Positions 14,397-27,595 of a stretch of DNA of 64,000 nt are shown here, one piece after another. Source of the DNA: Gammaproteobacteria bacterium (GTDB taxonomy: Bacteria; Pseudomonadota; Gammaproteobacteria; SpSt-1174); the NCBI GenBank assembly GCA_037388465.1, contig JARRKE010000005.1:5010-69009 (forward strand), written 5' to 3'. Both the position numbers and the translations under genes were made by a program. Numbering within the stretch: the first letter of the stretch is position 1; every line of letters begins with the position of its first letter. Below the pieces are notes generated by a model. That model did no database searches, was not told the DNA's origin, and was given only the letters and a program-made list of their open reading frames with translations.

Positions 14397-15374
14397 ATGA
14401 CCCACTCACCGGAATCCTTCGAATCGCTCGCCCGCGCCGTCATCCGCATCGAGACCGAGGCCGTCGCCGCCCTGGAAGCCCGCATCGACGGCAACTTCGA
14501 GCGCGCCTGTGAACTCATGCTCCACTGCCAGGGGCGCGTGGTGGTGACCGGCATGGGCAAATCGGGACACATCGGCGACAAGATCGCCGCCACCCTGGCC
14601 AGCACCGGCACCCCCGCCTTTTTCGTGCATCCGGGCGAGGCCAGCCACGGCGACCTCGGCATGATCACCGCCAAGGACGTGGTGCTGGCGCTGTCCAACT
14701 CCGGCGAAACCGAGGAGCTGCTGACCATCCTGCCGATCCTCAAGCGCCTGGGTGTGCCCATGATCGCCATGACCGGCAACCCGCCCTCCACCCTGGCCCG
14801 CGAAGCGGACGTGCACCTCGATGCCAGCGTCGAGAAAGAGGCCTGCCCGCTGGGGCTGGCCCCCACCTCAAGCACCACGGCCGCACTGGTCATGGGCGAT
14901 GCCCTGGCGGTCGCCCTGCTCGAGGCGCGCGGCTTCACCGCCGACGATTTCGCCCGCTCCCATCCCGGCGGCCGCCTGGGCCGGCGGCTGCTGCTGCATG
15001 TGACAGACATCATGCACAGCGGTGAACGCATTCCGCTGGTGGCGCCCGATACGCCGCTCAGCGAGGCGCTGCTGGAAATCACCCGCAAGGGGCTGGGGAT
15101 GACCGTGGTGGCCGACACGGACGGGCGGCTGCAGGGCGTGTTCACCGACGGCGACCTGCGCCGCTGTCTGGACCGGACGGTGGACGTGCACAGCACCCCC
15201 ATCCGCGAGGTGATGACCCATCCCTGTCAAAGCGTGCCCGCAGACCTGCTGGCCGTGGAGGCGCTGACACTGATGGAGACGTGCAAGATCAACGCCCTGC
15301 CCGTCACCGATGCGGACGGACGCGTGATCGGCGCCTTCAACATGCACGATCTGCTGCGCGCCGGCGTGGTCTGA
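14397..15374 (+). CDS. kdsD: Arabinose-5-phosphate isomerase (SIS + tandem CBS)
   Basis: VTGMGKSGHIG SIS motif with C-terminal CBS pair. Confidence 0.9.
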   Translation: MTHSPESFESLARAVIRIETEAVAALEARIDGNFERACELMLHCQGRVVVTGMGKSGHIGDKIAATLASTGTPAFFVHPGEASHGDLGMITAKDVVLALSNSGETEELLTILPILKRLGVPMIAMTGNPPSTLAREADVHLDASVEKEACPLGLAPTSSTTAALVMGDALAVALLEARGFTADDFARSHPGGRLGRRLLLHVTDIMHSGERIPLVAPDTPLSEALLEITRKGLGMTVVADTDGRLQGVFTDGDLRRCLDRTVDVHSTPIREVMTHPCQSVPADLLAVEALTLMETCKINALPVTDADGRVIGAFNMHDLLRAGVV

Positions 15375-15392
15375 CCAACCGGTCCTACATTT

Positions 15393-15806
15393 TCAATGTC
15401 GGGTCGGCAGGGCCTCGACCAGGCCGGGATCGAGATGCCAGTGGTCGGCCACCGTGCGGGCCCGCGCCAGGTCGTCCGGATGGACATACACCTTGAGACG
15501 GGCCCCATGGGCCTCCGCCCATTCGGCAAAAGCCTGCCAGCGGCGCCCCGGAAGTTCCTCGCCAAGATCGGTGGCCGTCTCCACCACGGCGAGCAGGGGC
15601 TGCAGGCCCGCCACCCCATCGGCGAAAATATCCGGCGTCATGGGCACGTTGAGGACCCGGATTGTCACGCGTCCGGGCTCTTCGAATCCCGGCAACTCAT
15701 GGGCCGAAAAATGCCGGTAACCGCGCGCCTTCAACATATCGATCGCGCTTTCCATCATGGTTTCGCGCTCATGCTCGACGGCATCGGGCAACATGGTCGG
15801 ATACAT
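15393..15806 (-). CDS. Hypothetical protein (137 aa), antisense insert between kdsD and kdsC
   Basis: Minus-strand ORF with strong G/C third-position bias (..GAC CAC TGG CAT CTC GAT CCC GGC CTG..). The overlapping plus-strand ORF 15396..15827 has an R/G/H-rich composition typical of a wrong frame. Confidence 0.5.
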   Translation of the reverse strand: MYPTMLPDAVEHERETMMESAIDMLKARGYRHFSAHELPGFEEPGRVTIRVLNVPMTPDIFADGVAGLQPLLAVVETATDLGEELPGRRWQAFAEWAEAHGARLKVYVHPDDLARARTVADHWHLDPGLVEALPTRH

Positions 15807-16009
15807 GGCTCACCTCCCACCCCCTGAGGGCTTTGCTGGCCAATTTATTCAAGTATAGTCGCGCCCTGACGGTCGGTTGGAAATGCGCCCCGCGGCCTTT
15901 TTCAGCACCGTCGGGCCGCAAAAATCAAACACCCAAGTGATTGATTTACGGACCGGACACCCCTGCAACGGACTGCAAGCACCGCAAACGGGTTATCCTT
16001 GGGGTTTAC

Positions 16010-16552
16010 ATGAGCATACCGGCAGCAATGGAACACATCCTCGAGAAGGCCAAAGACATCCGCCTGGTGATCTTCGATGTGGACGGCGTCCTCACCGACG
16101 GCGGCCTGTTCTTCGGCGACGACGGCCAGGAATACAAGATGTTCAATTCACGGGACGGTCACGGCATTCGCATGCTCAAGCATGGCGGCGTGGAGATGGC
16201 CGTGCTTACCGGGCGCCAGTCCGAGGTGGTCAAACACCGCATGCGCGACTTGGGAGTCAGCCTGGTCATCCAGGGCCAGCGCGACAAGCTGCCGGCCTTC
16301 AAGATCCTGCAGGCCGAGACCGGCATCTCCGCCGAGCACATGGCCTATGTCGGCGACGACGTGGTCGACCTGCCGGTCATGCGCCGCGTCGGCTTCGCCG
16401 TGGCGGTGAACGACGCGCATCCGCTGGTGATCGAACACGCCCACTGGGTCACCCAGAAGGCCGGCGGGCGCGGCGCGGGGCGCGAGGTCTGCGAACTGAT
16501 CCTCAAGGCCCAGGGCAAACTCGACGCGATGCTCGAATCCTACCTGGCATGA
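16010..16552 (+). CDS. kdsC: KDO-8-phosphate phosphatase (HAD)
   Basis: IRLVIFDVDGVLTDG HAD motif I and DDVVDLP motif. Confidence 0.9.
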   Translation: MSIPAAMEHILEKAKDIRLVIFDVDGVLTDGGLFFGDDGQEYKMFNSRDGHGIRMLKHGGVEMAVLTGRQSEVVKHRMRDLGVSLVIQGQRDKLPAFKILQAETGISAEHMAYVGDDVVDLPVMRRVGFAVAVNDAHPLVIEHAHWVTQKAGGRGAGREVCELILKAQGKLDAMLESYLA

Positions 16553-19943: not shown

Positions 19944-20145
19944 ATGCTGACACATGAACCGTCTTAATACGCCCGCCGTCACTGACTGGCCCTGCCGCCC
20001 GGCAGTGCCCGCGGGCGTGTTGTCGTCCAACGGGAATCAGTCATGCCCTTTGCGATTCCCGTTCGGGAAGCCTGAGGCTAGACTTCCCGCCTCCAACCAC
20101 AGGGTACAACGCAGGCCACGAGGCCTATCAAGAGGAGTAACCACA

Positions 20146-20469
20146 ATGCAACTCGATCTCACAGGTCACCACATGGACATCACCCCCGCCCTGCGCGACT
20201 ACGTCACGGACAAAATGGGCAAGCTCGAACGCCATTTCGATAACGTGATCGACGTCCACGTGGTCCTTTCGGTCGAAAAACTCCGCCACAAGGCCGAGGC
20301 AAGCATCCTGGTCAGCGGCAACAAGCTGTTTGCCGACGCCGTTGACGAAGACATGTACGCCGCTATCGACGCTCTGTCGGACAAGCTGGATCGCCAGGTA
20401 CTGAAACACAAGGACAAGGTTCAGGATCATCACCGGGCTGAAGGCTCTCACCGCAACCAGGCCTCCTGA
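20146..20469 (+). CDS. hpf: Ribosome hibernation promoting factor
   Basis: MQLDLTGHHMDITPALRDYV, preceded by an AGAGGAG Shine-Dalgarno sequence. Confidence 0.9.
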   Translation: MQLDLTGHHMDITPALRDYVTDKMGKLERHFDNVIDVHVVLSVEKLRHKAEASILVSGNKLFADAVDEDMYAAIDALSDKLDRQVLKHKDKVQDHHRAEGSHRNQAS

Positions 20470-20479
20470 CACCTGCATC

Positions 20480-20941
20480 ATGAACATCGGCGATCTACTC
20501 AGCTCCGAACGGGTCTGTTACGACCTGAACGCGAACAGCAAGAAGGCGGCACTGGAGGCCCTCAGCAAGCTGCTCGCGGACGACGACTCGTCTGCCATCG
20601 AGATCTTCGACGGACTGATCGGCCGTGAACGCCTGGGCAATACCGGGCTGGGCAAAGGCATTGCCATACCCCATGCCCGGATTGCCTCGGCGAAACACCT
20701 CAAGGCCGCACTGATCAAACTGGCGCAACCCATCGATTACGACGCCGCGGACCATGTCCCGGTCGACATGCTGTTCTGTATGCTGGTGCCGGAAGAGGCC
20801 AGCCAGGAATACCTGAATGTCATCGCCGCCATCGCCTCCCTGTTTTCCGATGCGGAAGCGGTCGAACACCTGCGCTCGGCGGGTACCGCCGAGGCCATGC
20901 TTAACCAAGTTGCGAGCCGCAAGGTCAGCGACGCCGCGTGA
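20480..20941 (+). CDS. ptsN: PTS EIIA-Ntr
   Basis: 153 aa. NTGLGKGIAIPHAR active-site His region. Confidence 0.9.
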   Translation: MNIGDLLSSERVCYDLNANSKKAALEALSKLLADDDSSAIEIFDGLIGRERLGNTGLGKGIAIPHARIASAKHLKAALIKLAQPIDYDAADHVPVDMLFCMLVPEEASQEYLNVIAAIASLFSDAEAVEHLRSAGTAEAMLNQVASRKVSDAA

Positions 20942-26866: not shown

Positions 26867-27184
26867 TTAACCGCGTTTAAGTGCCGTGCCCAGCAGGCCA
26901 TGCTGCTTGGTGGGCGCAACGGGCTGACGCTCGAAGTCTTGTACCAGCGTGTCCAGCGCCAGCAGAATACGGCGCAGCAAATCGTCGTCGGGACCCGGCA
27001 TGCCCTCCTCCTCGGCCACCGCCACCTCCGCCGCATCGTATTCCCAGGCACTCAGGATCTGGATCTTCTGATCCAGGGTCAGATCGGGATGATCGACGAC
27101 CTCCTCCGGGCCGGCAAAAACCGCGGCGGGATCGCGAAAGGCCTGTTCCAGCCTTTCTCGCGTCATGTGTACTTGGTCAGTCAT
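26867..27184 (-). CDS. Small acidic hypothetical protein (~105 aa); N-terminus uncertain
   Basis: Minus-strand ORF convergent with mgtE, ending 6 nt after the mgtE stop. The ORF's extension upstream of 27184 is low-complexity. Confidence 0.4.
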   Translation of the reverse strand: MTDQVHMTRERLEQAFRDPAAVFAGPEEVVDHPDLTLDQKIQILSAWEYDAAEVAVAEEEGMPGPDDDLLRRILLALDTLVQDFERQPVAPTKQHGLLGTALKRG

Positions 27185-27595
27185 GGACACTCTCATACGT
27201 GTTGGGCAGAAAACAGGCCGCATGCGGCCCGAATAAGCTGCCCGCTTGCGCTCAAACCTTGCCTCGTAACGCAGGTGATGGCCGAACGGCTCGATTTTCG
27301 CTGCTTCGCTCATAACGGGCTTTAGCTTTACCATGGCCAGGCAACGGCGGCGGCGATATGCTGCGGCACAGCCGTCTGCCAGACGCGGCATGGCTCCCCA
27401 GTGTTTAACCCAATACGCGGAAATTGCAACGTGAATCGGGCCGGTGGATTTGGCCGGCAAGACCCATTGCCCATAACGGACCTTAAGTGATAGCCGGAAC
27501 CTATGATCCATATTTTCACAATCAATTAGCCTTAAATATAAGCGATTACTAATATTTAAGACGTCCCAACCACATCGCATCATTCAGGAGACGTC

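Follow-up and report, generated by a model that had tools for sequence, protein, structure and literature searches.

A small antisense gene of predicted PD-(D/E)xK fold between kdsD and kdsC in one gammaproteobacterial lineage

The 64,000-nt stretch of gammaproteobacterial DNA analyzed here (contig JARRKE010000005.1 of assembly GCA_037388465.1, positions 5,010 to 69,009; hereafter the window) carries a gene cluster for 3-deoxy-D-manno-oct-2-ulosonic acid (Kdo) synthesis and lipopolysaccharide (LPS) export in the order yrbG-kdsD-[gap]-kdsC-lptC-lptA-lptB-rpoN-hpf-ptsN-hprK-rapZ, according to its open reading frames (ORFs) and to public gene calls on an identical contig. Our subject is orf137, a minus-strand gene located in the gap between kdsD and kdsC, which measures 635 bp (15375-16009). 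The genes and features of this region are as follows:

14397..15374, plus strand: kdsD, arabinose-5-phosphate isomerase, 325 aa, the upstream flank, with stop codon TGA
15375..15392, no strand: convergent spacer from the kdsD stop to the orf137 stop, 18 bp, with no convincing terminator
15393..15806, minus strand: orf137, ATG start, 137 aa, member of a rare unannotated family with a predicted PD-(D/E)xK fold
15807..16009, no strand: divergent spacer from orf137 to kdsC, 203 bp (221 bp if kdsC starts at 16028)
15813..15817, minus strand: Shine-Dalgarno sequence GGAGG, 6 nt upstream of the orf137 ATG, read directly from the sequence
15852..15857, minus strand: -10-like hexamer TATACT, 45 nt upstream of the orf137 ATG, a candidate promoter element with no good -35 that was missed by the consensus scan
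15922..15947, no strand: AT-rich palindrome AAATCAAACAC-ccaa-GTGATTGATTT in the divergent spacer, 11-nt arms with 1 mismatch, a candidate operator
16010..16552, plus strand: kdsC, Kdo-8-phosphate phosphatase, 180 aa, the downstream flank, followed by lptC-lptA-lptB-rpoN

Both flanking genes are recognizable at the domain and family level. KdsD has SIS and CBS domains by Pfam and scores 474 bits against the NCBIfam model, below the equivalog cut-off of 505, and 372 bits against the KpsF/GutQ subfamily model, above its cut-off; KdsC has a HAD domain and scores 222 bits against an NCBIfam cut-off of 208. The gap is thus flanked by KdsD and KdsC orthologues, with lptC, lptA, lptB, and rpoN downstream, and belongs to the cluster to which the initial annotation had assigned it. 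That annotation gave the separation as 636 bp; the separation itself is confirmed and the exact figure is 635 bp. Its description of a 137-aa minus-strand ORF convergent with kdsD at 18 bp and divergent from kdsC at 203 bp agrees with our coordinates. The start of kdsC is ambiguous, as the ATG at 16010 (180 aa, with a weak GGGG upstream) competes with an ATG at 16028 (174 aa) preferred by public gene callers. The 635-bp layout recurs, base-identical, on five further contigs from five samples, which rules out an assembly artifact.

The sequence evidence identifies orf137 as a genuine, stand-alone, protein-coding gene on the minus strand. Homologues of its protein extend over the full length at 47-59% identity, and 33 alignment columns are invariant. 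At seven homologous loci (the fetched loci are designated L001, L002, and so on) the sense frame is open in all seven, while the mirror frame has stops in three (L001, L002, and L006). Substitutions between homologues are by far most frequent at third codon positions, followed by first and then second positions, with counts for positions 1/2/3 of 12/6/31 between L001 and L002 and 18/13/46 between L004 and L006. Codon log-odds trained on the flanking genes amount to 0.33 per codon for the minus-strand ORF vs. 0.08-0.11 for its plus-strand mirror, ORF 15396..15827. The initial annotation had named codon usage favoring this plus-strand ORF as a result that would speak against its proposal; when checked, the statistics favored the minus strand. 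It had also relied on a convincing bias in GC content at third codon positions (GC3), an argument that fails, given that GC3 is 0.761 for the minus-strand ORF vs. 0.736 for its mirror (neighboring genes, 0.79-0.89) and two values this close cannot by themselves pick the coding strand; moreover, the GC3 of orf137 is the third lowest among 50 genes of the window. Codon usage of orf137 is mildly atypical and lies in the low tail of these genes (log-likelihood ratio rank 6/50, GC3 rank 3/50), a pattern that fits either later acquisition or low expression.

The gene was initially described as an orphan, which it is not. Relatives of the protein form 10 clusters in a set of 5.8 billion proteins, and in a set of 1.84 billion representative proteins 35 reach E<=1e-3, of which 18 reach E<=1e-10. 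The family is represented in the genomes of Thioalkalivibrio sulfidiphilus and T. denitrificans, in a Thioalkalivibrio metagenome-assembled genome (MAG), and in another gammaproteobacterial MAG. Distant relatives of about 126-136 aa, from Fibrobacterota and other groups, have the same conservation pattern. We worked with two alignments, one of the 10-sequence core family (A1) and one of 33 family members (A2). Public records label orf137 a hypothetical protein, and searches of the protein against Pfam, NCBIfam, PADLOC, and PHROGs returned 0 matches. The family profile retrieved from PDB sequences chance matches to quinone reductase alone, and one family member gave a weak match to TnsA-like_N, which is in keeping with the fold described below. 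With 0 PADLOC and 0 PHROGs matches and no partner gene in the 635-bp spacer, tests for a defense or toxin-antitoxin role were likewise negative.

The position of orf137 is peculiar to its host lineage. As a comparison set we used 80 metagenomic loci whose KdsD is 63-73% identical to that of the window, 76 of them informative and 4 cut by contig ends. In 68 of the 76, kdsC directly follows kdsD, with an extrapolated gap of -19 to +238 bp (median 21.5 bp, none >=300 bp). A six-frame profile search within about 4 kb revealed no orf137 relative in any of the 80 kdsD loci, and it detected no second copy of orf137 in the window and no remnant of the family either there or among the fetched loci. By blastn, DNA homology with the relatives ends at the kdsD stop codon (about 15374), and the 203-bp spacer matches only contigs of the same organism (L007-L011), without a homologue in the relatives. 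The placement of orf137 between kdsD and kdsC is therefore unique to one lineage and comes with about 220 bp of unique flanking DNA. These comparisons bear out the initial proposal of a new gene interrupting a normally tight junction. They temper its claim that kdsD-kdsC adjacency is very conserved: the adjacency is common, but it is not invariant, since eight informative relatives have no kdsC after kdsD. These eight (L074, L078, L089, L090, L091, L026, L043, and L019, with KdsD identities of 64-70%) comprise five loci in which kdsD runs on to lptC, lptA, or lptB and three without lpt genes in the fetched flank. Inspection of the orf137 insertion for scars revealed short repeats at chance level, with no target duplication and no terminal inverted repeats.

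A confident AlphaFold2 model of the protein has a predicted local distance difference test (pLDDT) score of 85.3 and a predicted template-modeling (TM) score (pTM) of 0.81. It consists of helix 8-27, strands 31-35, 47-49, 54-56, 60-63, and 71-76, helix 84-99, strand 103-108, helix 110-122, and strand 130-132. Foldseek searches of the PDB and of viral models matched it to the endonuclease domain of R2, Can2, XisH (PDB 2inb; TM 0.54/0.57), Hjc, VRR-NUC, and a head-completion nuclease. The modeled fold is that of the restriction-endonuclease-like, PD-(D/E)xK class, in contrast to the unknown fold of the initial annotation. Orf137 has the alpha/beta core of this superfamily in common with its members and has no sequence-profile match to any of its curated families, and we regard its relatives as a new, unannotated sequence family inside this well-known superfamily. 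Compared with the superfamily at large, the family-specific traits are the lack of the signature lysine, an invariant GRRWQ helix motif, and an inserted beta-hairpin (residues ~47-56).

The conserved residues of orf137 are E13, D59, E76, G87-R88-R89-W90-Q91, H109, and D112. P58-D59 lies just ahead of strand 60-63, with D59 at least 90% conserved across the 33 members of A2, and E76 lies at the end of strand 71-76 and is invariant in A1. In the core family the invariant GRRWQ (87-91) opens the helix after strand 71-76, accompanied by a D80-L-G-E-E loop and by H109-x-E-D. Judging by sequence and model together, P58-D59 and E76 would correspond to the "PD" and the "(D/E)" of the superfamily signature, and may be catalytic. 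The protein would then bind nucleic acid, and probably cleave it, through a metal site formed by D59 and E76. Some restriction enzymes use another residue in place of the lysine, and in orf137 the GRRWQ segment at the start of the next helix could serve as such a substitute; we infer that Arg88/89 or His109 replaces the missing residue.

Taken together, we consider that orf137 is probably a stand-alone gene for a small single-domain protein of PD-(D/E)xK fold that was relocated, in reversed orientation, to the kdsD-kdsC junction in one lineage, and that it is a lineage-specific arrival and not a functional part of Kdo/LPS synthesis. Several observations weigh against this interpretation. The structure model was built on a 10-sequence alignment, and the Foldseek matches are fold-level only, with best E-values of 7e-3 (PDB) and 3e-3 (viral models) and identities of 8-16%. 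No sequence model matches any of the 33 family members, with only scattered sub-threshold noise from Pfam. The canonical lysine of (D/E)xK is absent, position 78 being A, S, or T and never K, and the acidic residues are in a different register in the core family (V74-x-E76) than in its distant relatives (E74-x-E76); the missing lysine and the shifted register make catalytic competence uncertain. No conserved gene partner offers a clue to function, and the distant relatives in Fibrobacterota and other groups share none either. A consensus scan of 15200-16200 found neither a sigma-70 promoter nor a terminator. Finally, the nearest KdsD relatives are about 73% identical, too distant to resolve the timing or direction of the rearrangement.

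Regarding activity, we put a real nuclease at even odds or slightly less. The principal alternative, less likely but possible, is that the protein has a PD-(D/E)xK fold without nuclease activity and serves instead in regulation or binding, a role proposed for cyanobacterial XisH or for other inactivated members of the superfamily. Against such a role, the core family keeps D59, E76, the DLGEE loop, GRRWQ, and H109-x-E-D unchanged or almost so, in the manner of a preserved active site. A specific kinship with XisH, the fdxN element excision controlling factor (PDB 2okf and 2inb), is also poorly supported: orf137 is 10-13% identical to it, none of the 33 members gave a Pfam match to XisH (PF08814) at E<=10, and the family profile misses the 2okf and 2inb sequences. 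In addition, XisH is found in cyanobacteria, whereas the orf137 family is found in sulfur-oxidizing Gammaproteobacteria. No xisI partner adjoins orf137, whose neighbors are kdsD and kdsC, and the homologous loci share no small ORF. As for other enzymes of this fold, the archaeal Holliday junction resolvase Hjc and the C-terminal nuclease domain of NucS/EndoMS carry the canonical E-x-K, and NucS/EndoMS also has an N-terminal DNA-binding domain without counterpart in the single-domain, 137-aa orf137; neither Hjc nor NucS/EndoMS gave a Pfam or NCBIfam match or any sequence similarity to the orf137 family.

Homologues of orf137 are found in several unrelated settings:

Context A: sigma-54 response regulator -> homologue -> DUF294 nucleotidyltransferase (L004, L005, L006, and L098/L099)
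Context B: gluQ -> homologue -> histidine kinase -> the same regulator -> DUF294 (L003)
Context C: methyltransferase -> homologue -> <- YdjM (L001, L002, and L100)
Context D: DegP-like / homologue / TrxC-like (L101)
Context E: kdsD -> <- orf137 / kdsC (the window only)

The closest homologues of orf137 (57-59% identity) are those in contexts A and B. None of the Thioalkalivibrio neighbors (histidine kinase, sigma-54 response regulator, DUF294, and gluQ) is present within the window, and the upstream flanks of the homologues are not conserved, apart from a hexamer discussed below. Since the family occupies unrelated intergenic positions, its placement between kdsD and kdsC is uninformative on its function. 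In Thioalkalivibrio-like genomes the block of gluQ, a PAS histidine kinase of ~990 aa, the sigma-54 response regulator, and DUF294 (a cyclic-nucleotide-binding [cNMP] plus CBS nucleotidyltransferase) is itself conserved; the homologue lies between gluQ and the kinase in L003 (4975-12399) and between the regulator and DUF294 in L004 (1-8564), L005, L006, and L098/L099.

This spread of contexts raises the question of whether orf137 is a selfish, free-standing gene of the homing-endonuclease type that moves between intergenic sites, with the kdsD-kdsC junction as one landing site. Five contexts among about a dozen core-family loci, including two slots within one conserved gluQ-kinase-regulator-DUF294 neighborhood (L003 vs. 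L004, L005, and L006), would suit such an element, as would a nuclease fold, a slightly atypical codon usage, and its organization as a single unit with its own promoter-like element. We nevertheless consider this explanation unlikely. Orf137 is single-copy, with no remnants elsewhere, and matches no family of phages or plasmids; conservation extends neither to the flanks nor to terminal repeats or target duplications; the homologues are only 47-59% identical, and near-identical copies in different taxa are lacking; none of the 80 kdsD loci of relatives carries the gene, although the KdsD proteins of these are themselves only 63-73% identical; and one local rearrangement could account for the difference between L003 and L004. 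A bolder version, to which we likewise assign a low probability, would have the family be an unrecognized group of minimal, free-standing, homing-like PD-(D/E)xK nucleases whose genes move one at a time into the spacers of conserved operons and whose non-canonical active site replaces the lysine by an Arg-rich helix next to D and E, the antisense landing within this essential operon having forced a new promoter for LPS export.

The antisense gene would have consequences for transcription of the cluster. The E. coli genes yrbG-kdsD-kdsC-lptC-lptA-lptB follow the same order as here, on into rpoN-hpf-ptsN-hprK-rapZ, but in the window 635 bp and an antisense gene stand between kdsD and kdsC. The six E. 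coli cistrons from yrbG to lptB form one operon, driven mainly by a strong promoter, yrbGp, with two minor lptA promoters inside lptC (PMC4986956), so that internal promoters at this locus would not be new. Here, the divergent spacer would have to hold the promoter of orf137 and may hold one for kdsC. Hexamers of the form TAnACT lie ~35-47 nt upstream of the ATG, by eye, in the window and in L003-L006 (TATACT, TACACT, or TAGACT), which suggests that orf137 may be transcribed from a promoter of its own in the divergent spacer. A separate promoter for kdsC-lptCAB, which the initial annotation took to be implied by the layout, is plausible; kdsC-lptCAB would then be expressed from a new promoter in the divergent spacer, or else by read-through from kdsD across the antisense gene. 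Given that the consensus scan found neither promoter nor terminator, such read-through, antisense to orf137, is still conceivable. At the convergent junction the local hairpin does not exceed shuffled sequences in stability (z -0.27 and -0.55), and Rfam has no match in the region (E<=1) or in the whole window (gathering thresholds).

The palindrome at 15922-15947 has no second occurrence in the window, where shuffled sequences predict 0 matches; it is AT-rich in a genome of 64% GC and could be an operator. The divergent arrangement, with this palindrome in the shared spacer and a layout stable across five samples, would suit a tie of orf137 to kdsC-lptCAB-rpoN, either regulating Kdo/LPS export or being co-regulated with it. 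We think a link of this kind very improbable. No homologue elsewhere lies beside kdsD, kdsC, or an lpt gene, orf137 is missing from the relatives of the host cluster, and the palindrome does not travel with the orf137 family, being absent upstream of its homologues; furthermore, the five samples are base-identical and count as one population.

There is next to no probability that the plus-strand ORF 15396-15827 (143 aa) is the real gene, or that both ORFs are chance frames of a GC-rich, non-coding region: the plus-strand ORF is open, has a positional GC content (0.757/0.472/0.736) similar to that of the minus-strand ORF, and is also open in L003-L005, but besides its lower codon log-odds and the stops at three loci it has no Pfam match, the substitutions cluster at what would be its first codon position, and it is the minus-strand protein that has the full-length homologues and the 33 invariant residues. 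We therefore reject it as a mirror artifact of a GC-rich gene, excluded by the stops and the substitution pattern.

If orf137 is indeed a relocated gene of PD-(D/E)xK fold, a rare, unnamed sequence family joins a very large superfamily, and the tight kdsD-kdsC junction of the LPS/Kdo operon is able to tolerate an antisense gene, with the essential lptCAB transcribed either from a new promoter or through read-through accompanied by convergent transcription. The case is useful for annotation and as a small study in operon disruption, and neither opens nor settles a major question; its weight would grow if these proteins turned out to be mobile nucleases or to rely on an unusual, lysine-less site for catalysis.

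Some further observations concern sequences near the homologues and other parts of the window. Repeated ATTCAAA and inverted TTTGAAT motifs lie at 6400-6490 of L004, downstream of the T. sulfidiphilus homologue, and long palindromes of the GCCGGATGCGCTGCGCTTATCCGGCCTAC type, resembling repetitive extragenic palindromes (REP), lie at 5592-5715 of L006, upstream of its homologue. Within the window, the start of rpoN is ambiguous: the longest ORF begins at GTG 18399 (514 aa), while the public call is 484 aa. Two minus-strand ORFs proposed by a crude gene caller, 20128-20487 and 26867-27583, have coding scores of 0.12 and 0.04 per codon and GC3 values of 0.68 and 0.62, respectively; both are probably spurious antisense frames, and the first overlaps the hpf region.
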